12,688 nucleotides of DNA, from UHGV virus genome UHGV-0208284; one strand, written 5' to 3'. Numbering within the stretch: the first letter of the stretch is position 1; each line of letters opens with the position of its first letter. The stretch is from a virus. Made by a program: the position numbers and the translations under genes. The notes beneath the pieces are model-generated. The model searched no databases and was not told the origin of the DNA. It saw only the letters and a list, made by a program, of their open reading frames with translations. Of this stretch, positions 1 to 12,688 are shown one piece after another.

Positions 1-346
1 GGTTGTCCGGTATTTGCCGGTATGGAATTACCGAAAGGCGCGGTAGTTACTGAGTAACAGGCATTACAGCAGCCCTTCAGTGTGAGGGGCTGCGATAATG
101 CCGGTATTAGAGTGCGTGTAAATGATAATCGCTCCCATTTTCACGGGTCCTTTCCGGAATCTGAAACACCGAGGGACGGCATACGCGCAGAAATCGCCAA
201 ATTTTTGCATTTTCATTCGTCATCATCATCTTGTTAACCGCATGATATTTATTGTTAATTTATTTTTTCTATGTCGAAATTGGTGGTTTTTTATTCATCA
301 ACATAAAGCTCGTCGTGATCTTGGTTTTTTATGTGTCGGGTAAATT
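1..346 (+). other. Candidate packaging-initiation (cos-like) region upstream of the terminase genes
   Basis: Non-coding leader directly 5-prime of the small terminase gene, which is where cos lies in lambda-type phages. It holds three copies of CCGGTAT (7-13, 18-24, 101-107), a 7-bp inverted repeat gcagccc/gggctgc (69-75 and 87-93), and an AT-rich stretch (about 220-345) with two GGTTTTTTAT direct repeats. The only ORF here (122-343) is low-complexity and has no ribosome-binding site. No cohesive-end sequence can be identified from sequence alone. Confidence 0.25.
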
Positions 347-844
347 ATGGATCGTGAACTGAAGAATCTTGCACTCAACATCAGTCAGGTAGCTGCTCTG
401 TCTGGATTGCACCGACAAACGGTATCTGAAAGGTTAAAAAAAATTAAAACCGCTGGTGGGCACGACAAACTTAAGTTGTACAAACTCACTGATATTCTGG
501 CTGAGTTATTGAAGTTGCCACCGCCTGTCGCTGAAGGGGAAATGGATCCTCACGACCGAAAAGCCTGGTATCAGTCAGAACGGGAACGCCTGAAATTCGA
601 ACAGGAAGTCGGAGAATTGATCCCTGCGTCTGATGTCGCCCGTGAATTTGCTGAAATGGCAAAGGCTATGGTGCAGGTTCTGGAAACTCTCCCCGATATT
701 CTTGAACGCGATTGTGCTCTTGAGCCTTCGGCTGTCATGCGGGTGCAAAGCATTATTGATGATCTGCGTGACGAAATTGCGCGGCGGGTGGCGGATGACA
801 GCAAACCGGAAGATGAAGAGGAGGAAAATCAGGAGGACGAATAA
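347..844 (+). CDS. Terminase small subunit (Nu1-like, N-terminal HTH, acidic C-terminal tail)
   Basis: 165-aa ORF immediately upstream of, and overlapping by 1 nt (TAATG), the large terminase. It has an N-terminal helix-turn-helix-like segment (ISQVAALSGLHRQTVSERL) and an acidic C-terminus (PEDEEEENQEDE). Position and architecture are typical of lambda-type small terminases. Confidence 0.7.
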   Translation: MDRELKNLALNISQVAALSGLHRQTVSERLKKIKTAGGHDKLKLYKLTDILAELLKLPPPVAEGEMDPHDRKAWYQSERERLKFEQEVGELIPASDVAREFAEMAKAMVQVLETLPDILERDCALEPSAVMRVQSIIDDLRDEIARRVADDSKPEDEEEENQEDE

Positions 845-2961
845 TGCCTGTGCAGGCGACCGCCAGATCTTTGAAACTGGATACAGGCCAGTTAATTAAA
901 GCGCCGCGCAGAATGCCTGTTGCCGAAGCGGTTCAAAAATTTATGCGAGTCCCTACATCTGGTGGCAACTCTGTTCCGTGGGATCCACTGGTTGCACCGT
1001 ATGTGATTGAACCCATGAACTGCCTGTCGTCCCGTGAGTTTGATGCGGTTGTTTTTGTTGGTCCTGCCCGTACGGGCAAGACTAACGGCCTGATTGATGG
1101 CTGGGTGGTTTATAACATTGTCTGCGATCCGTCTGACTTTTTGCTGGTGCAGATGACGCAGGATAAGGCGCAGGAGCACTCCAAAAAGCGCCTGGCAAGA
1201 ACATTTCGTTGCAGTCCGGAGGTCAGAAAACGCCTCAGCCCACGCCGTAACGATAACAACGTTCATGACAAATATTTTCTGTCAGGTAGCTTTCTGAAAA
1301 TCGGCTGGCCATCCATCAATGTCATGTCATCCTCTGATTTTAAATGTGTGGCGCTGACTGATTACGACCGATTTCCTGAAGATATTGATGGCGAAGGCGA
1401 TGGTTTTTCCCTGGCGTCAAAACGTACCACCACATTTATGTCTGCAGGTATGACGCTGGTGGAGAGTTCGCCCGGGCGTGAGATCACAAACAGTAAGTGG
1501 CGCAGAACATCACCGCATGAGGCGCCGCCCACCACAGGTATCCTTTCTCTGTATAACCGTGGCGATCGTCGTCGCTGGTACTGGCCCTGCCCGGATTGTG
1601 GTGATTATTTTCAGCCATCCATGGAGGCTATGACGGGGTATCGTGACAATCCTGATCCTGTAAAAGCGAGTGAAGCGGCTCATATATTATGCCCTCATTG
1701 TGGCAACCGAATCACCGCGGACATGAAACGTGAACTGAATGGACGCGGTGTGTGGTTGCGTGAGGGTGAGCTGATCGACAGGGAAGGGAATGTTACCGGA
1801 ACACCCCGGCATTCAAGGGTTGCGTCATTCTGGATGGAGGGGCCCGCTGCAGCCTATCAGACCTGGGCACAACTGGTTTACAAACTACTGACAGCTGAGC
1901 AGGAATATGAAGCCACAGGCAGTGAAGAAACACTGAAGGCGGTGATTAATACCGACTGGGGATTACCTTATTTGCCTCGTTCTGCACTGGAGTTGCGCAG
2001 TGCAGATGTGCTGATGCAGCGGGCCGAAGATTACGGTAAACGCCTGGTGCCACCGAAAGTACGTTTTCTTATTGCGGCAGTCGACGTGCAGGGTGGGAAG
2101 AACCGGCGGTTTGTGGTGCAGATTACTGGCTATGGTGAGGACGGCGAACGCTGGCTGGTGGACCGTTATAACATCCGGCATTCATTGCGCTGTGATGAAA
2201 ATGGTGAGGCTCTTCCTGTACATCCCGGCGCTTACCCGGAAGACTGGCAGTTGCTGGTCACCGATGTACTGGAGAAAACATATCCGCTCCAGTCCGATTC
2301 GTCCCGCAGAATGCCTGTGCTGGCAATGGCGGTTGACAGTGGGGGTGAGGACGGTGTGACCGATAACGCCTATAAATTCTGGCGAAAATGTCGTCAGGAT
2401 GGACTGGGCCGACGGATTTTTCTGATAAAGGGTGACAGCACGAAACGCCAGAAAATTATCACCATCACACACCCGGATAATACCGGGCGAAGCGATCGCC
2501 GTGCTGATGCCCAGGGAAAGGTGCCGGTATACCTCCTGCAGACGGATCAGTTGAAAGACCAGCTAAGCAATAACCTGCAGCGTGAATCTCCCGGGCCGGG
2601 GTACATTCATTTTCCTGACTGGATTGGAGAATGGTTTTACGAAGAACTGACCTATGAAGAGCGTGGCGCTGACGGTAAATGGCGTAAGCCAGGCAAAGGG
2701 AATAACGAAGCCTTTGACCTTTTCTGTTATGCCCATGCGGTCGCCATTCTGCGTGGCTATGAAAAAATCCGTGACTGGAGTAACCCTCCCCAGTGGGCAA
2801 GAGGGCAGGATGCTGACGCGGGTGCTTCGGCAGACAAACGCTCTTCCGGTGTGGCGGACAAGAAAAACGTTGCCGGAAGAAATGAGCGGCGAGAAGAAGC
2901 GTCGTCAGAAGCGTTATCCGGAAACTGGTTATCACTACCCCGAAACGGAGGCTGGTTGTGA
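844..2961 (+). CDS. Terminase large subunit (lambda gpA-like)
   Basis: 705-aa ORF with a Walker A P-loop (GPARTGKT, nt about 1060-1083) and two CxxC pairs forming a zinc-ribbon-like motif (CPDCGD ... CPHCGN, nt about 1588-1712). Size and domain order match the gpA family as I recall it; it follows the small subunit and precedes W-like and portal genes. Confidence 0.9.
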   Translation: MPVQATARSLKLDTGQLIKAPRRMPVAEAVQKFMRVPTSGGNSVPWDPLVAPYVIEPMNCLSSREFDAVVFVGPARTGKTNGLIDGWVVYNIVCDPSDFLLVQMTQDKAQEHSKKRLARTFRCSPEVRKRLSPRRNDNNVHDKYFLSGSFLKIGWPSINVMSSSDFKCVALTDYDRFPEDIDGEGDGFSLASKRTTTFMSAGMTLVESSPGREITNSKWRRTSPHEAPPTTGILSLYNRGDRRRWYWPCPDCGDYFQPSMEAMTGYRDNPDPVKASEAAHILCPHCGNRITADMKRELNGRGVWLREGELIDREGNVTGTPRHSRVASFWMEGPAAAYQTWAQLVYKLLTAEQEYEATGSEETLKAVINTDWGLPYLPRSALELRSADVLMQRAEDYGKRLVPPKVRFLIAAVDVQGGKNRRFVVQITGYGEDGERWLVDRYNIRHSLRCDENGEALPVHPGAYPEDWQLLVTDVLEKTYPLQSDSSRRMPVLAMAVDSGGEDGVTDNAYKFWRKCRQDGLGRRIFLIKGDSTKRQKIITITHPDNTGRSDRRADAQGKVPVYLLQTDQLKDQLSNNLQRESPGPGYIHFPDWIGEWFYEELTYEERGADGKWRKPGKGNNEAFDLFCYAHAVAILRGYEKIRDWSNPPQWARGQDADAGASADKRSSGVADKKNVAGRNERREEASSEALSGNWLSLPRNGGWL

Positions 2962-3176
2962 AGAAAGAAGAAGTTTATCAGACGCTGGTCATGGTGCGTC
3001 AGGCTTACCGGGACTCCCTTGATGGTAAAAGCGTTTCCTTTACCGGGGTGAATGGTCGCGCCATTACTAATCATGATCCCGCTGCATTACGTGCAGAACT
3101 TGAATACTGGGAAAAACGCTGGGCGGCAGTCTGCCAGCCCACAAGGAAACCGTACAAACTCGCTCGTTTCTCCTGA
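2958..3176 (+). CDS. Head-tail joining protein (lambda gpW-like)
   Basis: 72-aa ORF starting at GTG 2958, overlapping the terminase stop (GTGA), with a GGAGG ribosome-binding site 6 nt upstream. The pattern D-x3-GK-x-V ... GR ... L ... LE resembles lambda W, and it sits between gpA-like and portal genes as in lambda. Confidence 0.6.
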   Translation: MKKEEVYQTLVMVRQAYRDSLDGKSVSFTGVNGRAITNHDPAALRAELEYWEKRWAAVCQPTRKPYKLARFS

Positions 3177-3184
3177 GGATTTTT

Positions 3185-4696
3185 ATGGGTTTTTTTGATA
3201 AAGCACTTGGCGCAATTGCGCCAGGGTGGGCAGTTTCGCGTGCCAGAAACAAAATGCTGTTGAGGGCTTATGAAGCAGCGCAGCCTTCACGCCTGAATAA
3301 GGCCCGGCGCGAAGTCCGTTCGGCGGATACTGCTGTTTTTGCAGCCGGGACGTCATTACGTGAACAGGCAAGAGCGCTGGATGAAGATCACGATATCGTG
3401 ATTGGTCTGCTGGATAAGCTGGAAGAGCGGGTTATTGGCGCACAGGGGATCCAGGTCGAGCCGCAACCACTGAGAAGCGACGGCACGCTTCATGAGTCAC
3501 TGGCGGAGCAGATATCGTCGCTGTGGTCTGAATGGTCCGTTCGCCCGGAGGTGACGGGGATGTTCACCCGTCCGGAAGCTGAACGGATGGCGCTGCGATC
3601 CGCCTTGCGTGATGGCGAAATGTTTGTACAGCTGGTGCGCGGACCTGTCGCCGGGCTGAATCATTCCACTGTGGTGCCATTATCACTGGAGCTTCTCGAA
3701 GCAGATTTTGTTCCGGTTAATCTGAATACGAATGCAGGGCAACAGATCCGTCAGGGCATAATTCTTAATAACTGGGGGCGGCCTGTAGGATATCGCGTAT
3801 ACAAATATCATCCTGCAAATCTGCGCGGTTTCAGCGCCGAGCTCAAAACTGTTAAGGCGGACAGCATGCTGCATCTGGCGATGCGGAAGCGCCTGCATCA
3901 AGTAAGAGGTGTCAGTCTGTTACATGGCGTGATTCGCCGGATTGCAGATCTGAAAGATTACGAAGAATCAGAGCGAGTGGCTGCCCGTATTGCTGCCGCG
4001 CTTGGCTTCTACATTAAACGCGGTGATGCAGCCAGCTTTCCGACGGATAACGACTGGACACCTCCGGAACAAAAAAACCGATATTTTGATATTTCGCCGG
4101 GCATGATTTTTGACGAACTGGCACCCGGTGAAGATCTGGGAATGGTGGAGTCTAACCGCCCGAATGTTCATCTTTATGAATTCCGTAACGGTCAGTTGCG
4201 GGCTGTGGCTGCCGGAACCCGTGGCAGTTATTCCAGTATTGCCCGTGACTATAACGGCTCCTACAGTTCGCAGCGCCAGGAACTGGTGGAAGGTTACGAA
4301 GGCTACGGTGTTTTACAGCAGTGGTTTGTCGGTCAGTACAGTCGCCCGGTGTACCGGGCATGGCTGGAGCAGGCAAAGCCTTTTCTTGATATTCCCCCTG
4401 ATGTGGATATATCCACGCTTTTCAACGCAACTTATCTTGGCCCGGTGATGCCGTGGATTGATCCGGTGAAGGAGGCTGCAGCATGGCGGGCCATTCTTCG
4501 CGGTGGTGCCGGGACGGAGGCCGAGTGGATACGTGCTCGTGGGCAGTCACCGCAGGAAGTAAAACGCCAGCGACTGCGTGAAACTGAATTTAACCGGGAA
4601 AACGGTTTGGTGTTCGATTCGGATGCCGCTAACGATAAAGGAGTGATTCCTGATGCAGCAAATGACAAGTCCGCGTCTTCGCGGGACGATAATTAA
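3185..4696 (+). CDS. Portal protein (lambda gpB-like, putative)
   Basis: 503-aa ORF located between the W-like gene and the prohead protease, with a GAGGA ribosome-binding site upstream of the ATG. Size fits lambda-family portals. The assignment rests on synteny and size; I do not recognise a diagnostic motif. Confidence 0.65.
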   Translation: MGFFDKALGAIAPGWAVSRARNKMLLRAYEAAQPSRLNKARREVRSADTAVFAAGTSLREQARALDEDHDIVIGLLDKLEERVIGAQGIQVEPQPLRSDGTLHESLAEQISSLWSEWSVRPEVTGMFTRPEAERMALRSALRDGEMFVQLVRGPVAGLNHSTVVPLSLELLEADFVPVNLNTNAGQQIRQGIILNNWGRPVGYRVYKYHPANLRGFSAELKTVKADSMLHLAMRKRLHQVRGVSLLHGVIRRIADLKDYEESERVAARIAAALGFYIKRGDAASFPTDNDWTPPEQKNRYFDISPGMIFDELAPGEDLGMVESNRPNVHLYEFRNGQLRAVAAGTRGSYSSIARDYNGSYSSQRQELVEGYEGYGVLQQWFVGQYSRPVYRAWLEQAKPFLDIPPDVDISTLFNATYLGPVMPWIDPVKEAAAWRAILRGGAGTEAEWIRARGQSPQEVKRQRLRETEFNRENGLVFDSDAANDKGVIPDAANDKSASSRDDN

Positions 4697-6740
4697 TCCC
4701 CGTGCCAGCCTTGCGGGGGTGGATGCCGCTAATGGTCAGTGCTGGTACGAAATCCGGGCACAGACTGCCGGGCGGGTGGAAATTTTTCTTTATGACGTAA
4801 TTGGTGGATGGGGGATTTCAGCACAACAGTTCATCAATGACTGTAAGGAAGCGGGGGTGTTTGAGGCCAGCGCCATTGATTTGCATATTCACAGCCCGGG
4901 CGGCGATGTGATGCAGGGCTTTGCCATCTTTAACACGCTGTCACGCCTGAAAGCAAAGGTGGATATCTGGGTGGATGGTGTTGCTGCCAGCATGGCCTCC
5001 ATGATTGTCTGCCTGCCCGGCGCCACAGTACATATGCCGGAGAATTCCTGGCTGATGATACACAAGCCGTGGGGCGGCGCTTCCGGCGATGCGGATGATA
5101 TGCGTGATTATGCCGACTGGCTGGATCGCAACGAGGCGTTGATGCTGTCAGCCTACATGAATAAAAGCGGACTCGGGCAGGAGGAGCTGGAAGCCATGCT
5201 GAAAGCAGAAACCTGGATGAACGGTGCTGAAGCTGTGGAAAAAGGCTTCGCTGATACGCTTGAACCTGAATTACAGGCTGCGGCCTGTGTGAATCAAAAT
5301 AAACTGAAGGATTACCATAACATGCCAGAACAGATTAACGCGCTTTTTGCTCCGCGTGCAGAAACGACGAACGGACAGCAGCAGGAACCGAAAACAGCCC
5401 CGCAAAATGCACAACAGACAACTGCTCAGCAGGTGCCATCAACCGGAAATGTGGATATCAGCGCAATTGCTTCGCAGGTTCAGCAACAACTGATGGCAGC
5501 CAATGCGGAACGTGTGCAGGCTGTAACTGCAGTATTTGCCTCTTTCCCGTCTTATGCCGACCTGAAAGCGGAGTGTCTGAACGACATGACCTGTACGGAA
5601 GCACAGGCCCGTGAAAAACTGTTGCAGGCGCTGGCAGCCGGAACGACACCAAGTGCAGGTCCGGGAGCCATTCATATTCATGCAGGAAACGGTAATCTGG
5701 TTGGCGATTCCATTCGTGCAGCTGTCATGGCGCGCGCCGGATATGCCGAAGCAGAAAAAGACAATGCCTATAACGGCTTTACACTGCGTGAATTGGCGCG
5801 TGCTTCGCTGGTTGATCGCGGCATCGGTATTTCCGGTCATTCCGCGCCCATGGCGATGGTTGGACTGGCATTCACTCACAGCAACAGCGATTTCGGCAAT
5901 ATCCTGATGGATGTGGCCCATAAAGCCGCGTTGCAGGGCTGGGATGAGGCCAGCGAAAATTTTGACAAGTGGACCCGCAAGGGAACGCTGACCGATTTTA
6001 AAACAGCGCACCGCGTCGGGCTGGAAACTTTCCCGACGCTGCGTCAGGTATTACCGGGCGCTGAATATAAGTATGTAACGCTGAAAGATCGTGGCGAACC
6101 GATTGCACTGGCGACTTATGGCGAATTGTTCAGCATTGATCGCCAGACCATCATCAATGATGACCTGGATATGCTGACCCGTATTCCGATGGCTATGGGG
6201 GCGGCAGCACGCACTACTGTGGGAGATCTGGTCTGGGCTGTGCTGACCAGCAACCCCAAAATGTCGGATGGCAAACCGCTGTTCCATGCAGATCATGGCA
6301 ACCTGGTGACGGCAGATTTGTCTATTGAAGGGCTGGATTCCGGGCGTAAAGCCATGCTGCTCCAGAAATCAGGTGACCGTCGCCTGAACATTCGTCCTGC
6401 TTTTATGCTGACGCCTGTAGCCATTGAGTCGCGAGCTAATCAACTGATTAAGTCTGCCAGTGTGCCTGGTGCAGATGCGAACAGCGGCATTATTAACCCG
6501 ATCCAGAATTTCGTCACAGTTTTGTCAGAAGCCCGTCTTGATGACAACAGTCCGACGGATTATTACCTGGTGGCAGCGCAGGGGCGTGACACGATTGAAG
6601 TGGCTTATCTTGATGGTATTGATACGCCATATCTGGAACAGCAACAGGGCTTTACGATTGATGGCGCAGCCTTCAAGGTGCGCATTGATGCTGGTGTGGC
6701 ACCACTTGACTGGCGAGGTATGGTCAAAGTGAAAAAATAA
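4653..6740 (+). CDS. Prohead protease (ClpP-like, S14) fused to a Gln-rich linker and a C-terminal major capsid domain
   Basis: 695-aa ORF with an AAGGAG ribosome-binding site about 10 nt upstream, overlapping the portal 3-prime end by 44 nt. The N-terminal region of about 200 aa carries ClpP-like Ser and His motifs (GVAASMASM at nt about 4976-5000; MIHKPWGG at nt about 5054-5077). A Gln/Ala-rich low-complexity linker follows (nt about 5290-5650), then about 360 aa that I infer to be the major capsid domain, because no other capsid-sized gene lies between portal and tail genes and a strong terminator follows the gene. Confidence 0.75.
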   Translation: MQQMTSPRLRGTIINPRASLAGVDAANGQCWYEIRAQTAGRVEIFLYDVIGGWGISAQQFINDCKEAGVFEASAIDLHIHSPGGDVMQGFAIFNTLSRLKAKVDIWVDGVAASMASMIVCLPGATVHMPENSWLMIHKPWGGASGDADDMRDYADWLDRNEALMLSAYMNKSGLGQEELEAMLKAETWMNGAEAVEKGFADTLEPELQAAACVNQNKLKDYHNMPEQINALFAPRAETTNGQQQEPKTAPQNAQQTTAQQVPSTGNVDISAIASQVQQQLMAANAERVQAVTAVFASFPSYADLKAECLNDMTCTEAQAREKLLQALAAGTTPSAGPGAIHIHAGNGNLVGDSIRAAVMARAGYAEAEKDNAYNGFTLRELARASLVDRGIGISGHSAPMAMVGLAFTHSNSDFGNILMDVAHKAALQGWDEASENFDKWTRKGTLTDFKTAHRVGLETFPTLRQVLPGAEYKYVTLKDRGEPIALATYGELFSIDRQTIINDDLDMLTRIPMAMGAAARTTVGDLVWAVLTSNPKMSDGKPLFHADHGNLVTADLSIEGLDSGRKAMLLQKSGDRRLNIRPAFMLTPVAIESRANQLIKSASVPGADANSGIINPIQNFVTVLSEARLDDNSPTDYYLVAAQGRDTIEVAYLDGIDTPYLEQQQGFTIDGAAFKVRIDAGVAPLDWRGMVKVKK

Positions 6741-6741
6741 T

Positions 6742-6769
6742 AAAAACCGCCGGACAGGGCGGTTTTTTT
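6742..6769 (+). terminator. Rho-independent terminator downstream of the capsid gene
   Basis: An A-tract, then stem ccgcc (6747-6751), loop ggacag, stem ggcgg (6758-6762), then T7 (6763-6769). The A-tract/T-tract flanks could extend the stem to 9 bp, which would let it act in both directions. It lies 2 nt after the capsid stop codon. Confidence 0.75.
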
Positions 6770-6815
6770 ATGACTGAGGCGGCGTGGCAGGCGCCGCATT
6801 TACCGGAGAGAAAAA

Positions 6816-7145
6816 ATGTCAAAAAATTATGTTCAGGACGGAAAAACCGTTGAGTGGGTGAATGGTACCGGAAAGGCTGTGTTATCAGGCGATCTTGTTG
6901 TTCAGGATAATCTTATCGGCGTTGCGCATGCTGATATTCCTGAAGATGCATCCGGTGTTTTACATACGACAGGTGTGTTTTCTTTGCCTAAAGAAGCGGA
7001 GGCGATGACTCAAGGTAAGCTGGTGTATTTCAAAGCCGATACGGCAACGCTGACGGCAACGAAATCAGGTAATACGCTGGTGGGTACCGTCTGGTGTAAC
7101 GCTGAAACCAGTGATGCCACTGTGTGTGTACGTCTGGGGTACTGA
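6816..7145 (+). CDS. DUF2190-like small head protein (putative decoration/cement protein)
   Basis: 109-aa ORF with a GGAGAG ribosome-binding site. Motifs GVF-LPK, G-x-VYF, NTLVG and a C-terminal V-x-V-x-L resemble the DUF2190 family commonly found next to capsid genes. It does not resemble lambda gpD. Confidence 0.6.
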   Translation: MSKNYVQDGKTVEWVNGTGKAVLSGDLVVQDNLIGVAHADIPEDASGVLHTTGVFSLPKEAEAMTQGKLVYFKADTATLTATKSGNTLVGTVWCNAETSDATVCVRLGY

Positions 7146-7531
7146 TGAACAGGTTCCGACGCCTGCTTACAAACGCGGATGCCCGGGTAACCCGGGCATT
7201 TGCTGAAGAGATACCCGCATATCTGTTCCTCCGGGACGGAGAAAAACGGCCTGTGAGGGTGATATTCGAATCGCCGGATGCGACCGTCGGGATCCGTGAT
7301 GGTGGTGAAATTAATGATCATGCGCCAGCCTTCAGTGTCATGACAGCAGATATTTCCGGATTAATGAAACGTGATCAGGTGGAAATTAATGCTGATATTT
7401 TTCATGTGACACATATTGGCGCTGATGAGGAAGGGCGTACGCGGGTTACCCTCGCGCGGGGAGAACCCGGAAGAAGTACACCTGCTGCCCCTGTCCGACC
7501 GAGTAAACGTTATGGCAGTCAGAGAGCATGA
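7145..7531 (+). CDS. Head-tail attachment protein (lambda gpFII-like)
   Basis: 128-aa ORF starting at ATG 7145, overlapping the upstream stop (TGATG). Segments VRVIFESPDA and PAFSVMTADISGLMKRDQVEINADIFHVTHIGADEEGRTRVTLARG parallel lambda FII (VIRGVFDDPE ... SLFVRTDEVRQLRRGDTLTIG ... WLGRG) as I recall it. Confidence 0.6.
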   Translation: MNRFRRLLTNADARVTRAFAEEIPAYLFLRDGEKRPVRVIFESPDATVGIRDGGEINDHAPAFSVMTADISGLMKRDQVEINADIFHVTHIGADEEGRTRVTLARGEPGRSTPAAPVRPSKRYGSQRA

Positions 7532-8234
7532 ACGAAGCAGTGCCCGGCAGCGACGGCTGGCACGAAACCTCGTCGTTGATATTGATGAAGATGAGGTGCT
7601 GAAAATTATCGCGAAACTGGGTGGTTCAAAAAGTCAGATCCGTAAAGCCTGGGGTGTGGCGCTGAAAAGAGCCGCGTCCGCACTGCGGATGAAGGCCATG
7701 GCAGAGTTTAAAAAACAGGTTGCGCCACGCAGCCAGAAAATGATCAAAAACCGTGTTTTGAATGCTTTTATCATTCGTCGAAATGGCGATGAGTTTGATG
7801 AGGCGAAGGTATGGTTTGGCCTGAACGCCATCAAAGTACGTGATTTGCGCGGACGTATTACCGGTGGAAGGCGTGGTGAACGCCATCAGTTGCGCGATGA
7901 ACGGGGACGTTTTGCACCGGCCACACGCCGAAGACAGGCGAGGGAGATTCGTTTTAAACCTGCCGGGGAGGCAATACCGGTCACTACCTGGTCAGGTGAA
8001 GAGGCTTTCATTAATGAATTTGAGTCTGAAAACCGGAGCGGACGCATTTCACGACGTAAGACGGTACTGGTCCGGCAGGCATCCGGACGACGAAGGGTGC
8101 GCGAAGCAGAAATTGATATTTATGAAGCCATGCTGAACCGTATAGAGGATTTTGTTTTCCCGGATGCGGAAGCGCTGATCCTGAAAAATTTTGAGCATGA
8201 ACTGAAATTCCGGGTATTTAAGGGGCTGGAGTGA
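7512..8234 (+). CDS. Hypothetical Arg/Lys-rich virion morphogenesis protein (possible neck or tail-completion protein)
   Basis: 240-aa ORF from the first in-frame ATG that does not deeply overlap the FII-like gene (20-nt overlap). It is very basic (for example RRGERHQLRDERGRFAPATRRRQAREIRFK) and sits between head-completion and baseplate genes. Family not recognised. The start is uncertain because the ribosome-binding site is weak; the open frame extends back to 7416. Confidence 0.5.
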   Translation: MAVREHERSSARQRRLARNLVVDIDEDEVLKIIAKLGGSKSQIRKAWGVALKRAASALRMKAMAEFKKQVAPRSQKMIKNRVLNAFIIRRNGDEFDEAKVWFGLNAIKVRDLRGRITGGRRGERHQLRDERGRFAPATRRRQAREIRFKPAGEAIPVTTWSGEEAFINEFESENRSGRISRRKTVLVRQASGRRRVREAEIDIYEAMLNRIEDFVFPDAEALILKNFEHELKFRVFKGLE

Positions 8235-8797
8235 TGGAACCATTGATGATGGGAACCTGGCATCGGGCAGTGATTGACAGTCTGAAACAAATTCCCTGGG
8301 TGGAAGATGCCGATGACTACCCGGAAAAAGTGACGCAACTGGTGACGCCTGCCGTGTTTGTGGATGTACCCGGCTGGGACAAGGCTCAGTTTGCCGACGG
8401 GCAGACACGGGTCACGCTGAAATGCGATCTGTTTGTGGTGACTGATCGGGCCGGAAAGACGGAAAACGTGCCAAAACCGCAGATATTTGCCCGCTGTCTG
8501 GCAATGGATTTATCTGACTGGATTGATGGAGCCACGTTCGGGCTGGATAACGTTGACCCGGCGGTTTTTATCGATGCTGAGGTGGATACCTTCGACCGAC
8601 TGCTGGACGACTACATCGTTTTCCGTGTCTCTTTTGAACAGGACATTCCGGTCGGCGAAGATCCGTTTGCAGTTCCGGCAGGTGCGCCGTTACAGGAAGT
8701 CTGGCTGGGTAAAGTACCGGAAACCGGTAAAAAGCATGTGCAGAATTATCGTCTTATCTGGAAAGCGGAGGGCACCGGTGATGAGTCTGGCGGATGA
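8234..8797 (+). CDS. Hypothetical phage structural protein (possible tail-completion or neck protein)
   Basis: 187-aa ORF with ATG overlapping the upstream stop (TGATG) and GGAG 4 nt upstream. It is acidic and lies immediately upstream of baseplate V. Family not recognised. Confidence 0.5.
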   Translation: MEPLMMGTWHRAVIDSLKQIPWVEDADDYPEKVTQLVTPAVFVDVPGWDKAQFADGQTRVTLKCDLFVVTDRAGKTENVPKPQIFARCLAMDLSDWIDGATFGLDNVDPAVFIDAEVDTFDRLLDDYIVFRVSFEQDIPVGEDPFAVPAGAPLQEVWLGKVPETGKKHVQNYRLIWKAEGTGDESGG

Positions 8798-9404
8798 AGT
8801 GGCAGAGTTACGCCGCAGGGTGGCGGATATGGTCCGACGCGGCGTGGTGGAGGAGGTGATCCCGGGTAGCCCGGTGATGGTCCGGGTGGATATCGGGGAT
8901 GTGCTTTCACCGCCGTTGCCCTGGATTCAGGTGCAGTCCGGGCGTTACATGCAGGTCAGTAATTACCCGGCACCCGGAGATGCGGTCACGGTGATATCGG
9001 AGGCAGGTGATCTGCGTAATGGTCGGGTGTATCCGGGGGCCAACATTGACGCGATTCCGGTACCGGCGGGCAGTGAACACGAGCATGTTATTTTGTTTGA
9101 TACCGGAACGGAGATCCGTTACGACCGCCAGGCTAATGCCCTGTCCATCACGCTGGCTGAAGGCGGCAGCTATAAAATCACCGGCAGGGGAACGCTTGAC
9201 GGTCCGGTGGAAATCACGGATACCCTGACTGTGCAGGGAAAAACGAAGATTAATGCCGATACGCAGGTTCTGGGCAATATCGGTGCCTCACAGGAGATCA
9301 CCGACAAAACCGGTAGCATGAGTAAAATCCGCGAAATTTATAATACTCATGATCACCCAGGCGACAGCGGGGGAACCACCCGTAAACCTAACCAGGAAAT
9401 GTGA
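8781..9404 (+). CDS. Baseplate assembly/spike protein (P2 gpV-like)
   Basis: 207-aa ORF with a GGAGGG ribosome-binding site 7 nt upstream of the ATG. The C-terminal motif HDHPGDSGGTT (nt about 9349-9381) matches the conserved C-terminal motif of P2 gpV-family spikes as I recall it, and the size matches. The ORF track extends this frame upstream to 8487, but that part overlaps the previous gene and is probably not translated. Confidence 0.85.
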   Translation: MSLADEVAELRRRVADMVRRGVVEEVIPGSPVMVRVDIGDVLSPPLPWIQVQSGRYMQVSNYPAPGDAVTVISEAGDLRNGRVYPGANIDAIPVPAGSEHEHVILFDTGTEIRYDRQANALSITLAEGGSYKITGRGTLDGPVEITDTLTVQGKTKINADTQVLGNIGASQEITDKTGSMSKIREIYNTHDHPGDSGGTTRKPNQEM

Positions 9405-9405
9405 A

Positions 9406-9427
9406 CGCCGCACCGGCGTTTTTTTTT
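9406..9427 (+). terminator. Weak terminator-like hairpin plus T9 tract between baseplate V and W
   Basis: Stem cgccg (9406-9410), loop cac, stem cggcg (9414-9418), then nine T residues (9419-9427). The 5-bp stem is short, so at most a partial terminator or attenuator. Confidence 0.35.
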
Positions 9428-9439
9428 CGGAAAAATTTC

Positions 9440-9796
9440 ATGATTGGTATTGATTCCGCCACTGGCAGATATCTGCACGGTAACGAACATCTGCGTCAGT
9501 CCGTCACCGATATTTTATCAACACCGGTCGGCAGCCGGGTACTTCTCAGGGAATACGGCAGTAGGTTGTTCAGTCTGCTTGATAACCCGCAGGATGATTT
9601 TACGCGGGTGAGGATTGTCCGTGAAACGGCAACCGCCCTTGAACGCTGGGAACCCCGCCTGACCCTCCGGCGGGTGGAGGTGACGTGGACAGGAGAAGGA
9701 AGCGCCTGGCTGACGCTTGTCGGGGTGAACAACGAAACACAGGAAACGATTCGACTCGAGGAGATAAAAATTGGCAGCATCTCAGGCAATCATTGA
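9440..9796 (+). CDS. Baseplate protein (P2 gpW-like, gp25 family)
   Basis: 118-aa ORF. The motif STPVGSRVLLREYGS and an overall pattern (ALERWEPRLTL ... V) resemble P2 W / T4 gp25-like baseplate wedge proteins. The start is taken as ATG 9440; an alternative GTG at 9401 would overlap the V stop and place the hairpin/T9 inside the coding sequence. Confidence 0.8.
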   Translation: MIGIDSATGRYLHGNEHLRQSVTDILSTPVGSRVLLREYGSRLFSLLDNPQDDFTRVRIVRETATALERWEPRLTLRRVEVTWTGEGSAWLTLVGVNNETQETIRLEEIKIGSISGNH

Positions 9797-10685
9797 TCTG
9801 TCCGCGATACCTGTACCGGATGCGGTGGAGGTGCCGGACACCGCTGTACTGGTCACTCAGATAGTGGCGAAATATCAGGAACTGGACACGTTGTTTTCGG
9901 CCCTGGTGGAATCCGATCCGGCGTATAAATGGGCAGAGGCACTGGCTTTTCGGGTGGCGCTGATGCGCCAGCAGGTCAATGATGCTGTCCGGGCTGTACT
10001 GCTTGCCAGTGCCCGCAGGAACGATCTGGATCAGATTGGTGCGAATTTTCAGGTGCAACGTCTGGTGATTACCCCGGCAGATGACAGCACTATCCCGCCC
10101 ACGCCTGCGGTGTATGAAGATGATGACGCTTTTCGCGAACGTATTCAGTTGTCATGGGCACGACTCAGCACCGCAGGCGCGAGAAACGCATACCACTATT
10201 TTGCACAGAGTGCCGATCCTGATGTGCTGGATGTGAAAGCCTACGGACCGGAAACGCATTCACAGGAAGGGCGTGTTTTTCTTTATGTGTTAGCGCGTAC
10301 AGGAAATGGTACGGCATCACAACCTCTGCTGGATAAGGTGGCGGCGTCAGTCAATGATGATGAAATTCGACCCCTGACGGATTTTGTCAGCGTCCGTGCG
10401 GCAGAAATTATTCCCTACGATGTGGTGGCGGATATCCATATTCCCTACGGGCTGGATGGTGAACTGGTGATGAAAAATGCCCGCCAGGCGCTGCAGACCT
10501 ACACTGACAGTGTGCACCGGATTGGCTCTGTGGCGTCCTGCTCAGGTATGGACGGAGCCCTGCATCAGACGGGGGTGATTACGGTGGCACTGAAATCGCC
10601 GGCCAGTGATATTGTTCCGGCGATGGGGCAGGCTCCATGGTGTCGCTCAGTCACACTGAACAAGGTGGAGACAACCGATGAATGA
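9771..10685 (+). CDS. Baseplate protein (P2 gpJ-like)
   Basis: 304-aa ORF. IIDLSAIPVPDAV near the N-terminus and NDLDQIGANFQVQRLVITPADDSTIPPTPAV (nt about 10020-10113) closely parallel P2 J as I recall it. The apparent start is TTG 9771 with a GAGGAG ribosome-binding site 8 nt upstream; it overlaps the W-like gene by 26 nt. The first in-frame ATG is about 65 codons downstream, beyond the conserved N-terminus. Confidence 0.85.
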   Translation: MAASQAIIDLSAIPVPDAVEVPDTAVLVTQIVAKYQELDTLFSALVESDPAYKWAEALAFRVALMRQQVNDAVRAVLLASARRNDLDQIGANFQVQRLVITPADDSTIPPTPAVYEDDDAFRERIQLSWARLSTAGARNAYHYFAQSADPDVLDVKAYGPETHSQEGRVFLYVLARTGNGTASQPLLDKVAASVNDDEIRPLTDFVSVRAAEIIPYDVVADIHIPYGLDGELVMKNARQALQTYTDSVHRIGSVASCSGMDGALHQTGVITVALKSPASDIVPAMGQAPWCRSVTLNKVETTDE

Positions 10686-12688
10686 CAAAATCAGAAGCAT
10701 ACTACCGGTCAGCGCCACCCGGGCAGAGCGGGTGGTGGACAGTACTGCCGGTGATATGCTGGCGGAAATCGCGGTCTGTCTGATCCGGTATGTCAAAAAT
10801 CCCGATTTATGTCCTGCTGAATTGCTGCCATGGCTGGCCTGGGAAATGTCGGTGGATACCTGGAACGAACACTGGACAGAGGCGGAAAAAAGGGCGGCAA
10901 TAAAGCGTGCTGCCTATATCCATCGTCACAGGGGAACAAAAGCCGCACTGAATGAATCCCTGGCAGACAGTCCGTTCCGGTCGCAGATTGTGGAGTGGTA
11001 TGAGCAGACGCCACCGGGAGATCCCTATACCTTCCGGCTGAATGTGGAGCAGAAGGACCTGCCGGTTCTGATAAACGACCACCAGGATTTGAAACATGCC
11101 GTATTACGGGCAAAAAATCTGCGCAGCTGGTTCAGTGTTCATATTTACGGAAGTAGTCGCGGAAATGGCTTTGGTTATGGTTATGTCACCGCGACGGAAA
11201 AACTGAAAAACAGGATACTGCCGTCAGAAATACAGCTGATACCAGATAATCTGCGACTGATCCCCGGAGAAGAGGTGTCTGTAAAGGTGACGGTGCTTCC
11301 CCTGATTGCAGATGATCGTTCGTTTACGGTACAGATCGAAGATGAAGGCGTGGCGGCAATCAGTATTTCTGGCGATATTATTACTCTGACAGGGAAGCGG
11401 TTTGGTCACACCACTGTAATTGTTTCAACGGTGAATGGTGTGATTGCCAGACTGCCCGTAAATGTTGTGTCTGTTGTTCAGGTTATTGTTCGTGCTGATA
11501 ATGTCAGCAGACCTCTGTTTTTTACAGACGCTCAGGATAATGACTTCACCATTGATTATGGTGATGGAGTGGACTGCAGGGATTATGTCATTGAAGCAGG
11601 TATGGTTAAAACCACCCGGGAATTACCTGTCGGGGAAGAAATTACGCTGACGATTAAAGGTGCTGAAAGTGTGACATTCTACTCATCATCAGCATTAAAC
11701 AGACCCAACCCATTACTGGAGATTATCAGGGTCAGTGGCACCAGAAGATATATGTCGCAGTTTGCAAATTTGCAGAATACATTACGAAAAATTCATGCAG
11801 GTGCTTTTGATAATTTGCCTCGTGCACTTTCATTCTCAGGGGCGTTTCGGGGATGTTCAGCATTAACTGAATTACCTGAAAACCTTTTTGCACAATGTGC
11901 AGAGGTATCTTCATGGAATGAGGTATTTTACGGATGTACTGGTCTGACAGATATTCCGGTTTTATTTGCACCTGAATCAAATGCGCGCACGCTTTCAAAG
12001 TTGTTCTACGGTTGTTCGAAAATAGTCCGGGTTCCGGAGGCGTTGTTTGCAGGTATGGATGACGCCTGGACTTTTGAGTCAGCATTTTACGGATGCAGCA
12101 AGATGGTTAATGCGCCGGCCATTCCCGCACGCAGTCTTCAGAACCTTTACATGACTTTTTCCGGTTGTAGTGAGCTGACTGAGCTTCCTGTGATATGGGG
12201 GAAAGAAAACGAAAGCCATGCGTTATCGATTAATTTGTCTTACGCATTTTACGATTGCCGGTCTCTGACTGTTATTCCTGAAAACTGGCTGGATGTTATC
12301 CGACATCGGATAGCGCATGTCAGAGGGATATTTAATAGGTGCTCCAGCATACGCAGTGTCCCCTCACGATTATTTGCCGGAGCAAATAATCTACGCACTG
12401 CTGACAATGCGTTTAATGACTGCCGCGGTATTACCCGTATCGGAGAGGGGGTGTTTGAGGGATGCCGGAGTCTGAGCGAAATAAACGATGCGTTCAGTTA
12501 CTGCAGTGCGCTTGAGACAACCGGCAACAGGATTTTTGCGGATTGTGTGTCTCTGAGGTCAGTGGCATCTGCGTTTGCCAACAGCGGTATTGTTAATGCC
12601 GGAGAAGAGCTTTTCGCTGGTTGTACATCCCTGACATTAATGGAGTCCGTTTTTGTAAACTGCCGGAAACTGGTTATGTTGCCGGACA
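10678..12688 (+). CDS. Tail protein: P2 gpI-like N-terminal domain fused to an Ig-like (Big_2-type) domain and Cys-containing LRR-like repeats; 3-prime end beyond the window
   Basis: Frame open from ATG 10678 (overlapping the J stop by 8 nt) to the window end, verified codon by codon with no stop. The N-terminal segment NPDLCPAELLPWLAWEMSVDTWNEHWTEAEKRAAIKRAAYIHRHRGT closely matches the P2 gpI N-terminus as I recall it (NPDTCPANLLPWLAWAFSVDRWDEKWPEATKRAVIRDAYFIHCHKGT). Nt about 11221-11470 encode a bacterial Ig-like pattern (VSVKVTVLPLIADDRSFTVQIEDEGVAAISISGDIITLTGKRFGHTTVIVSTVNGVIA). Nt about 11830-12688 encode at least 12 tandem degenerate repeats with consensus F-x-G/D-C-x-S/A-L-T-x-I/L-P-x-x-L-F. 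Confidence 0.85.
   Translation, partial: MNDKIRSILPVSATRAERVVDSTAGDMLAEIAVCLIRYVKNPDLCPAELLPWLAWEMSVDTWNEHWTEAEKRAAIKRAAYIHRHRGTKAALNESLADSPFRSQIVEWYEQTPPGDPYTFRLNVEQKDLPVLINDHQDLKHAVLRAKNLRSWFSVHIYGSSRGNGFGYGYVTATEKLKNRILPSEIQLIPDNLRLIPGEEVSVKVTVLPLIADDRSFTVQIEDEGVAAISISGDIITLTGKRFGHTTVIVSTVNGVIARLPVNVVSVVQVIVRADNVSRPLFFTDAQDNDFTIDYGDGVDCRDYVIEAGMVKTTRELPVGEEITLTIKGAESVTFYSSSALNRPNPLLEIIRVSGTRRYMSQFANLQNTLRKIHAGAFDNLPRALSFSGAFRGCSALTELPENLFAQCAEVSSWNEVFYGCTGLTDIPVLFAPESNARTLSKLFYGCSKIVRVPEALFAGMDDAWTFESAFYGCSKMVNAPAIPARSLQNLYMTFSGCSELTELPVIWGKENESHALSINLSYAFYDCRSLTVIPENWLDVIRHRIAHVRGIFNRCSSIRSVPSRLFAGANNLRTADNAFNDCRGITRIGEGVFEGCRSLSEINDAFSYCSALETTGNRIFADCVSLRSVASAFANSGIVNAGEELFAGCTSLTLMESVFVNCRKLVMLPD
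11830..12688 (+). repeat. Tandem degenerate coding repeats (F-x-G-C ... L-T-x-IP ... LF units) within the gpI-like fusion gene
   Basis: The protein-level period is about 23-28 residues in the first half and about 13-14 residues toward the window end. At nucleotide level the motif attttacggatg recurs (11927-11938, 12080-12091) with a near copy at 12245-12256. GC content is about 32-48 percent per 60-nt line here, against mid-50s in the head genes. Confidence 0.6.

Follow-up and report, generated by a model that had tools for sequence, protein, structure and literature searches.

Necks of the Closest Described Systems

The genes FII, Z, and U of phage lambda stand in that order, and in phage necks more generally the gene of the tail completion protein (TCP) is placed between the head-closure (Hc1) and terminator genes (PMC11099176); the location and role of the TCP in the neck have been described (PMC11661146; PMC11099176). 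The TCP fold, as in 80alpha gp51, comprises a long N-terminal helix, an apical loop or β insertion, and a C-terminal helix, to which models of lambda gpZ add a β domain (PMC11661146). The C-terminal loop and β-hairpin of lambda gpFII bind the O-loop of the terminator gpU, whose ring is negatively charged (PMC10721106). In P2, a single adaptor, gpL, replaces gpW and gpFII, and the tail terminator gpR has been structurally compared with PA0615, the collar of the R2 pyocin (bioRxiv 10.64898/2026.09.14.750843); the TCP listed for P2 is gpS (PMC11099176). The collar tethers tube and sheath (PMC11329794), in the case of PA0615 at the baseplate-distal end. For the Wolbachia phage WO, the S1 Text gives the order gpFII-gpZ-Collar-gpV, and HHpred was used there to relate the WO collar to that of R-pyocins. 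A literature search combining "lambda-like head" with "P2-like tail" found no papers.

We analyzed a stretch of 12,688 nucleotides from the virus genome UHGV-0208284, hereafter the window. A preliminary description had read the interval 7145–8797 as a junction in which two proteins of unrecognized family presumably adapt a lambda-type connector to a contractile P2-type tail. We consider it very probable that three translationally coupled genes in this interval instead encode the lower half of a "type 1" neck of the canonical kind, an ordinary and already described phage neck rather than a new adaptor. The FII-Z-collar-V arrangement is the one already published for phage WO, and the window adds a member to this known neck.

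Gene Content of the Window

The following features carry the argument; strand is given after the coordinates.

2958–3176, plus: gpW-like head-tail adaptor, predicted to form the uppermost neck ring, under the portal (phrog_118 "head-tail adaptor," 2.2e-17)
3185–4696, plus: portal protein, lambda family (PF05136 Phage_portal_2, 7.2e-89)
6816–7145, plus: capsid cement/decoration protein, DUF2190 (PF09956 Phage_cement_2, 3.8e-27; phrog_122 "head decoration," 1.8e-37)
7145–7531, plus: gpFII-type head-closure (stopper) protein, 128 aa (PF05354, 1.9e-12; phrog_82 Hc1, 2.3e-26; NF049848, 2e-10; PDB 1k0h gpFII, E 0.0022)
7512–8234, plus: predicted tail completion protein (TCP/Neck1), lambda gpZ family, 240 aa, pI 11.0 (phrog_27, 8.3e-26)
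8234–8797, plus: predicted tail (tube and sheath) terminator, R2-pyocin collar PA0615 family, 187 aa, pI 4.3 (profile match to PDB 6u5f_A)
8781–9404, plus: baseplate spike gpV (TIGR01644 phage_P2_V, 1.3e-21; phrog_9992, 1.5e-24)
9440–9796, plus: baseplate wedge gpW/gp25 (PF04965, 1.1e-15; phrog_43, 7.2e-39)
9771–10685, plus: baseplate wedge gpJ (PF04865, 3.6e-23)
10678–12688, plus: gpI baseplate protein fused to Ig-like (Big_2) and BspA-type LRR domains (PF09684 Tail_P2_I, 3.2e-36; PF13306 LRR_5, 2.9e-13; Big_2, 6.6e-4)

Upstream of the neck, the window also encodes a gpA-type large terminase and a ClpP-protease/capsid fusion. The gpW-like ORF, which gave no match in a Pfam scan, has the large terminase on one side and the portal on the other, like lambda W. 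The small terminase is of the DUF1441 type in the Pfam scan and does not belong to the Phage_Nu1 family. The lambda-type order proposed in the preliminary description is borne out for the terminase, the gpW-like protein, the portal, and the protease/capsid, whereas its Nu1 has to be replaced. As for its "FII-like" gene, we rejected the ORF at 6816–7145 as FII given its match to the DUF2190 cement/decoration family (PF09956, 3.8e-27), and the true gpFII homolog is the uncounted gene that follows it. The interval 7145–8797 contains three genes (7145–7531, 7512–8234, and 8234–8797) and not the two that had been described.

Downstream, the profile matches support the V, W, J, and I genes as originally named, and the gpV and terminator genes have 17 nt in common. 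The frame of the gpI fusion is open for 670 codons up to the end of the window and the ORF continues past it; the relatives L015–L017, whose tail module is 97–98% identical to window positions 7446–12688, have 802-aa homologs of this fusion. Sheath, tube, and tape-measure genes are absent from the 12,688-nt window, in agreement with the earlier suggestion that they lie downstream of the fiber genes, and this is where near-identical Escherichia coli prophages have sheath, tube, chaperone, tape measure, U, X, and D. Contigs that encode an identical 240-aa protein or gpV share this layout. The downstream tail genes are known from relatives that are 95–98% identical and not from the window's own element.

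That the window stops before the sheath and tube genes, and that the nearest solved relative of its terminator comes from the headless tailocin R2 pyocin, could be taken to mean that this is a defective element, or one whose particle is unconventional (such as a tailocin or headless tail), with neck genes that are relics lacking a head-joining role. We reject this reading as highly improbable, given that all window ORFs of the head, neck, and baseplate are intact, close-packed, and overlapping, that a gpZ-type TCP and an FII stopper make sense only with a head, and that relatives possess full head and tail modules. The block is also carried by isolated phages (Chris1 and yong2), and electron microscopy shows Valp1, another carrier, to be a myovirus (PMC11054321).

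A gpFII-Type Stopper and a gpZ-Type Tail Completion Protein

The product of 7145–7531 passes the curated threshold of PF05354 (48.1 bits; cutoff 26) and scores 40.5 bits against the NF049848 equivalog model (cutoff 25), which places it in the lambda gpFII family (PF05354).

The second ORF of the interval starts with ATG and encodes 240 residues with a computed pI of 11.02 and a net charge of +21. Its match to phrog_27 spans profile positions 4–194 of 199, and lambda gpZ matches the same profile (3.2e-69). An hhalign comparison of the family of the 240-aa protein, represented by 32 enterobacterial-type relatives with Wolbachia sequences excluded, against a group composed of lambda gpZ and PF06763 members returned a probability of 97.6% (E 2.8e-12, 174 columns); against lambda gpZ alone the probability was only 36%. 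PF06763 is matched by 10 of 40 family members. The 240-aa protein by itself matches neither PF06763 nor any other Pfam family and no NCBIfam model, and the family profile found no matches among PDB sequences.

An AF2 model of the protein (pLDDT 81.6) consists of helices at residues 26–81, a β region at 86–198, and helices at 204–237. This layout of N-terminal helices, β domain, and C-terminal helices resembles published models of gpZ (PMC11661146). A Foldseek search of the model against PDB gave no significant match, the 80alpha TCP included, and a search against BFVD gave modest matches only, to entries named "minor tail protein" and "HK97 gp10 family" (E 2e-5 to 0.1). The gene sits between the FII-type gene and the terminator gene, the context of Z in lambda. 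We assign the 240-aa protein as a predicted lambda gpZ-type tail completion protein, with membership in the family established by the profile comparisons.

A Terminator of the Pyocin Collar Family

The third ORF, which also begins with ATG, encodes 187 residues with a computed pI of 4.33 and a net charge of −16. A profile of its family (33 sequences) matches PDB 6u5f_A, "Collar PA0615," with an E value of 1.5e-28, and the conserved C-terminal motif of the family aligns with PA0615; the protein also matches phrog_1072 (2e-49). This link requires the family profile: in a phmmer search of PDB with the single sequence we saw only noise and not PA0615. An exact-sequence lookup returned no record, the protein has no Pfam or NCBIfam match, and a Pfam scan of its 33 relatives yielded nothing meaningful. 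Given that a word-indexed homolog search with the single sequence produced only six matches, we reseeded it with relatives derived from synteny. Such seeding is potentially circular, so the PA0615 and gpZ links were retested without Wolbachia sequences, and the PA0615 link also without those of Burkholderia. Both held, with a 13-sequence profile lacking Wolbachia and Burkholderia still matching PA0615 over its full length (E 5.6e-9).

The top Foldseek match of the AF2 model of the 187-aa protein is again the R2 pyocin collar (6u5f_A, 9.3e-8, TM 0.61/0.68), and the list continues with the Mu terminator (9khy, 1.7e-6), A-1(L) gp7, lambda gpU (E 2.6e-4, TM up to 0.7), T5 p142, GTA, T4 gp15, and the diffocin collar; every one of the top matches is a collar or a terminator. 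The model has a pLDDT of 77.6, with low confidence over the C-terminal 40 residues. It supports a tail-terminator fold, and profile and model together identify the protein as a probable tail terminator belonging to the family of the R2-pyocin collar PA0615. The gene is directly 5′ of gpV in the window and in every relative examined. Membership in the sequence family of lambda gpU was rejected: hhalign gives 3.3%, gpU belongs to phrog_37 as opposed to phrog_1072, and the two have just the fold in common.

These assignments bear on the proposal that the two proteins fall outside all known families and constitute a novel adaptor fitting a lambda-type connector to a P2-type contractile tail. In its favor, neither protein has a Pfam or NCBIfam match, their RefSeq homologs are labeled "hypothetical protein," and the model of the 240-aa protein lacks a fold match in PDB. 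Profile methods, however, place the two proteins in the gpZ tail-completion and pyocin-collar/terminator families, and the pair accompanies lambda-type necks from E. coli to Wolbachia, being named gpZ and Collar in WO. The alternation of a very basic and an acidic protein is not peculiar to this locus either: the computed pI values are 12.0 and 4.05 for lambda Z and U and 10.5 and 4.5 for P2 S and R, and a basic-then-acidic charge pattern is a general signature of TCP/terminator pairs. We regard a novel adaptor as very improbable. The preliminary description was accurate in noting a highly basic and an acidic protein between the head and baseplate genes and in placing them at the head-tail interface, where their neck families belong; it is the claims of unrecognized family and of an adaptor role that give way to clear homology with characterized families, an outcome that the description itself had named as refuting it.

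A second proposal is that the two proteins are a far-diverged P2 gpS/gpR pair, such that the P2-type module starts two genes earlier and the lambda-type module ends at FII. P2 R and S are located directly upstream of the V operon, gpR is the terminator that has been compared with PA0615 and gpS the listed TCP (see above), the charge pattern agrees, and the recombination breakpoint at 7446 described below puts both genes in the tail module. Yet hhalign of both families against gpR and gpS gives less than 1% probability, the 240-aa protein falls demonstrably in the lambda gpZ family, and the window has the lambda-like order of TCP then terminator, whereas P2 has terminator then TCP. Therefore we view the two pairs as probable functional equivalents that share a terminator fold superfamily and not as members of the same sequence families, and we consider the P2 pair very unlikely. 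Membership in PF06891 (gpR) and PF05069 (gpS) was rejected for both proteins, with hhalign probabilities of 0.1–0.4% in all four comparisons and no Pfam match. Since P2 gpR and gpS show no sequence resemblance to either protein, the term "P2-type" fits the baseplate but not the 240-aa and 187-aa proteins. The comparisons with P2 R/S, lambda Z/U, and Mu neck proteins that had been suggested earlier led to lambda Z by sequence and to lambda U and the Mu terminator by fold, but not to P2 R/S or the gpU sequence family.

A Mosaic Joint inside the Stopper Gene

One further feature is defined by matches of nine E. coli contigs.

7445/7446, no strand: mosaic (recombination) breakpoint between head cassette and neck-tail module

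These nine contigs have a canonical lambda head; their match to the window begins exactly at 7446, with 90–98% identity, and they have nothing in common with window positions 216–7445. Among the matches listed for one query, 14 with only 80% query coverage begin at query positions 347–349, which correspond to window positions 7446–7448. The true nucleotide-level joint is sharp and lies at 7445/7446, inside the FII gene, and not across the 240-aa and 187-aa proteins. The mosaic nature of the locus, with a lambda-type head and neck order followed by a P2/R-pyocin baseplate, was correctly recognized in the preliminary description, and it is the position of the joint that we revise.

One tail module is joined at 7445/7446 to two unrelated head cassettes. 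Therefore the tail module brings with it the TCP, the terminator, and the C-terminal end of FII that contacts the terminator, whereas upstream of the joint entire head cassettes are swapped. The C-terminal 27 residues of FII are identical in FII of E. coli 52F4, whereas the rest of the protein is ∼46% identical. The FII core domain (residues 1 to ∼100) forms part of the head cassette, and the 27 residues of its basic C-terminus move with the tail module. Head-cassette exchange in these prophages occurs at a fixed point within the stopper gene, and the joint leaves the part of the stopper that touches the terminator in lambda on the side of the terminator, an example of a mosaic joint that respects a protein–protein interface.

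We speculate, as a tentative reading that we hold to be possible but not the likelier one, that the breakpoint at FII codon ∼101, which recurs with base precision, marks a defined, portable docking interface composed of three co-inherited elements: the basic C-terminal end of the stopper (∼27 residues), the TCP, and the acidic terminator. If so, any lambda-type head cassette could plug onto this contractile tail, those seen here being either the canonical Nu1-A-W-B-C-D-E-FI or the ClpP/capsid-fusion type, and the joint would represent a natural design rule for head-tail chimeras.

Proposed Organization of the Neck

The analysis establishes the family memberships, the terminator fold, the synteny and its conservation, and the complete tails of relatives, and we infer the stoichiometry, virion location, and contacts of the three proteins. 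By homology, the gpFII-type stopper would form a hexamer that seals the filled head beneath the portal-gpW adaptor. [quoted passage not shown] The PA0615-family terminator, by homology with PA0615 and the diffocin collar, would form a hexameric ring that caps the tube, with a C-terminal arm that may hold the last sheath ring and a ring surface that may dock the FII ring. A special lambda-to-P2 adaptor is unnecessary. The terminator ring is, to our knowledge, the generic adaptor or interface in all long-tailed phages; here a contractile-tail terminator stands where lambda has gpU.

Two proteins that are "hypothetical" with respect to RefSeq, Pfam, and NCBIfam in the examined E. coli and enterobacterial prophages can accordingly be named as a putative gpZ-type TCP and a putative collar-type terminator. 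That a very basic protein precedes an acidic one, odd at first sight, is a general trait of this pair.

Comparison with Known Systems

The order FII-Z-terminator in the window is that of lambda FII-Z-U and is followed by a P2/pyocin-type V-W-J-I. The lambda order is identical, FII and Z of the window are true members of the lambda families, and lambda gpU has the same fold class as the 187-aa protein and is likewise acidic. The 187-aa protein is 56 aa longer than gpU and has a C-terminal arm that would be expected to bind the sheath. The gene after the terminator also differs, the window having baseplate genes where lambda has the tube gene. P2 gpR (terminator) and gpS (TCP) are functional equivalents of the window pair and are encoded just upstream of V-W-J-I, but they have no detectable sequence similarity to it and their gene order is reversed.

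The R2 pyocin collar PA0615 (PDB 6U5F/6U5J) is both a full-length profile homolog and the best structural match of the 187-aa protein, although identity in the Foldseek alignments is merely 17–19%. Its gene is directly upstream of that of the gpV homolog PA0616 in the R2 pyocin, as the 187-aa gene is upstream of gpV in the window. Given that the R2 pyocin has no head, FII, or TCP, its collar is a free cap, whereas the predicted ring of the window must also dock an FII-type stopper.

The block next to gpV is conserved in Chris1, yong2, Valp1, EcoM-569R10, Burkholderia HM795, and Wolbachia WO, and spans phages of Citrobacter, Hafnia, Vibrio, Burkholderia, and Wolbachia (WO). A megablast search of the region against the phage collection gave no match, these relatives being found at the protein level only. 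WO is like the window in having FII-type, gpZ-type (phrog_27), and collar-type (phrog_1072) genes right before gpV, W, J, and I, and in having this block behind a lambda-type head module (gpA, gpW, and a lambda portal). The WO and window proteins, however, share only 25–30% amino-acid identity. Where the window has a ClpP/capsid fusion and a DUF2190 cement protein, WO encodes C, D, and E as separate head genes; it also has a PAAR gene, and its tail genes are located elsewhere. The enterobacterial TCP is ∼70 aa longer than that of WO (240 vs. 170 aa) and has a larger β/Arg-rich middle region.

Gene Content of the Late Operon

The plus strand of the window forms a tightly packed late operon that runs from the small terminase through a gpI fusion.

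Genes of the late operon
347–844, plus strand, small terminase (DUF1441, not Phage_Nu1)
844–2961, plus strand, gpA-type large terminase
2958–3176, plus strand, gpW-like adaptor (phrog_118)
3185–4696, plus strand, lambda-family portal
4653–6740, plus strand, ClpP-protease/major-capsid fusion (695 aa; PF00574 plus PF25209)
6816–7145, plus strand, DUF2190 cement protein
7145–7531, plus strand, gpFII homologue (128 aa; PF05354, 1.9e-12)
7512–8234, plus strand, gpZ-type tail completion protein (TCP; 240 aa; PHROG 27)
8234–8797, plus strand, pyocin-collar-family tail terminator (187 aa; PA0615 profile match)
8781–9404, plus strand, gpV
9440–9796, plus strand, gpW/gp25
9771–10685, plus strand, gpJ
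10678 to window end (ORF continuing beyond), plus strand, gpI + Big_2 + BspA-type LRR fusion

The genes here are coupled, with TGATG overlaps at 7143–7147 and 8232–8236, a 20-nt overlap between the FII gene and the 240-aa gene, and a 17-nt overlap between the 187-aa gene and gpV. Two hairpins lie between genes of the operon. The first, at 6742–6771 between the capsid-fusion and cement genes, is strong and GC-rich (AAAAACCGCC-GGACAG-GGCGGTTTTTTT) with A- and T-runs on either side, and looks like a candidate intrinsic terminator or attenuator that could work in both directions. The second, at 9403–9430 (GAACGCCG-CAC-CGGCGTT followed by T9), is terminator-like, sits in the 35 nt that separate gpV from gpW/gp25, and could be an attenuator within the baseplate operon.

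The Neck Proteins Belong to Known Families

A preliminary description placed two unassignable proteins in the interval 7145–8797 and read them as a novel adaptor between a lambda-type head and a P2-type baseplate. Both proteins are real, one of 240 aa and basic (pI 11.02, net +21) and one of 187 aa and acidic (pI 4.33, net −16), and the baseplate order V, W, J, I does follow them, from 8781 to the window end. A third gene of the interval, at 7145–7531, had been overlooked; its product matches PF05354 (1.9e-12), NF049848 (2e-10), and PDB 1k0h (E 0.0022), and is the genuine homologue of lambda gpFII, the head-closure stopper. The observation was largely correct apart from this gene and two labels, Nu1 and FII, corrected here.

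The 240-aa protein had no match in Pfam or NCBIfam scans, but the family could be assigned by profile search, which covered nearly the entire profile of PHROG 27, "tail completion or Neck1 protein" (8.3e-26). This PHROG includes lambda gpZ itself (3.2e-69) as well as the syntenic proteins of Wolbachia phage WO and Burkholderia phage HM795. Because our first family alignment was partly seeded by synteny, we repeated the comparison using only 32 enterobacterial/Vibrio-type relatives against lambda gpZ plus PF06763-positive proteins; hhalign joined the two groups (97.6% probability, E 2.8e-12, 174 columns, query 28–236 with gpZ 5–183). In an AF2 model (pLDDT 81.6), helices at the N- and C-terminal ends frame a central beta region, in agreement with published TCP models, in which lambda gpZ bears an extra beta domain at its apex (PMC11661146); Foldseek returned no matching solved structure for it. 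On the sequence profiles, we assign the 240-aa basic protein as a gpZ-type TCP.

The 187-aa protein falls in the pyocin-collar family of tail terminators. A family profile built from 33 sequences matches the R2-pyocin collar PA0615 (PDB 6U5F/6U5J) over its full length (E 1.5e-28), and a 13-sequence profile that leaves out the Wolbachia and Burkholderia sequences still does so at 5.6e-9. With an AF2 model (pLDDT 77.6, C-terminus weak), Foldseek ranked the two states of the pyocin collar best; the Mu terminator and cyanophage A-1(L) gp7 came next, and there were further matches to lambda gpU, T5 p142, T4 gp15, the diffocin collar, and the GTA terminator. Comparison by hhalign rejected membership of the 187-aa protein in the gpU sequence family, and likewise rejected P2 gpR and gpS for the 187-aa and 240-aa proteins, which have no sequence resemblance to them. 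With the two proteins falling in the gpZ and PA0615-collar families, the novel-adaptor reading is refuted, clear homology to characterised families being what the preliminary description itself had named as ruling it out. Their charge contrast is generic, as a basic TCP with an acidic terminator is found in all six relatives examined and in lambda Z/U (pI 12.0/4.05) and P2 S/R (10.5/4.5).

Conservation of the Arrangement

The FII–Z–terminator order of the window is the same as lambda FII–Z–U. The same three genes lie 5' of gpV in Citrobacter phage Chris1, Hafnia phage yong2, Vibrio phage Valp1 (seen by electron microscopy to be a myovirus; PMC11054321), the Escherichia vB_EcoM-569R10 group, Burkholderia phage HM795, and Wolbachia phage WO, whose collar had been assigned to the R-type bacteriocin ring via HHpred (PMC9203015, S1 Text). 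The window is a new enterobacterial member of this known, published neck/baseplate arrangement. Among 5426 complete E. coli genomes, 78 have the region, with identity reaching 96.4%. E. coli A19 matches window 121–11151 at 95.5% and continues 3' of the match with fibre, chaperone, sheath, tube, assembly chaperone, tape measure, U, X, and D genes; contigs with an identical 240-aa or gpV protein carry the same complete tail set. The predicted location of sheath, tube, and tape measure 3' of the window is therefore borne out in near-identical relatives.

Two points of modest weight remain: an annotation gap and a precise, recurrent head-cassette breakpoint. The gpZ-type TCP and collar-type terminator of the enterobacterial lineage have no Pfam or NCBIfam model, and RefSeq names both "hypothetical protein" (7512–8797 and the homologues in the comparison contigs L001 and L010–L018). 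PHROGs labels phrog_1072 "unknown function" despite its match to a solved structure.

Exchange of the Head Cassette

Nine E. coli contigs (L010–L018) have a canonical lambda head composed of Phage_Nu1, GpA, gpW, a lambda portal, S49 protease C, D, E, FI, and FII, and show no nucleotide similarity to window 216–7445. In all nine, the match to the window starts at exactly 7446 and holds at 90–98% identity as far as 11202, 11891, or the end of the window; the first ~215 bases of the window are also common to them. A ~7.2-kb packaging/head cassette, from the small terminase through the FII core, has thus been swapped between conserved flanks. The right joint is base-precise (7445/7446, near FII codon 101), and the left lies roughly at ~215. 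A 73-aa ORF at 122–343, just 5' of the small terminase, spans this left edge and has no Pfam match.

The window's ClpP/capsid-fusion head type reaches at least 80% coverage of a 5200–7445 probe in only 5 of the 5426 complete E. coli genomes, and shares 73–75% DNA identity with Chris1. Protease and major capsid protein form a single fusion at 4653–6740 with DUF2190 as decoration protein, whereas lambda has separate C/Nu3 and E genes and gpD decoration.

Overall identity between the two FII versions is ~46%, but their last 27 residues, TLARGEPGRSTPAAPVRPSKRYGSQRA, are identical, with a net charge of +5 over the last 25. It is tempting to speculate that the joint is placed so as to keep the terminator-contacting FII C-terminus with its own terminator; the site might just as well be set by local homology or by the overlap of FII with the beginning of the TCP gene.

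Proposed Working of the Neck

Based on family membership, we posit the following as the most likely scheme. By homology, the portal, the gpW-like adaptor, and an FII hexamer would close the head, and the 187-aa terminator, as a hexamer, would cap the tail, with its body on the last tube ring. The C-terminal arm of the terminator would tie the last sheath ring, as in tailocin collars (PMC11329794; for a comparison of the terminator arrangement with P2 gpR, see bioRxiv 10.64898/2026.09.14.750843). The basic TCP would lie in the lumen at the tail top, touching the end of the DNA and the N-termini of the tape measure as 80alpha gp51 does (PMC11661146), and would be needed for efficient head–tail joining and correct DNA routing, as is SPP1 gp16.1 (PMC11099176). 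Heads and tails would then join via the FII–terminator interface; in lambda, the FII beta-hairpin and C-terminal loop meet the O-loop of gpU, whose ring is strongly negative (PMC10721106).

The gpI Fusion and Further Breakpoints

The last ORF joins a gpI domain (Tail_P2_I, residues 9–149) with an Ig-like domain of the Big_2 family and leucine-rich repeats of BspA type; its homologues have 802–855 aa, in contrast to 176 aa for P2 gpI. This domain architecture suggests a putative baseplate-borne receptor-binding module. Further breakpoints lie just past the gpI N-terminal domain, at ~11151–11202 and ~11891: similarity ends at 11151 in A19, at 11202 in contigs of the E. coli 52F4 type, and at 11891 in L018, and L015–L017 run on to the window end at 97–98%. 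Across this stretch, GC content falls from ~0.55 to 0.42–0.48.
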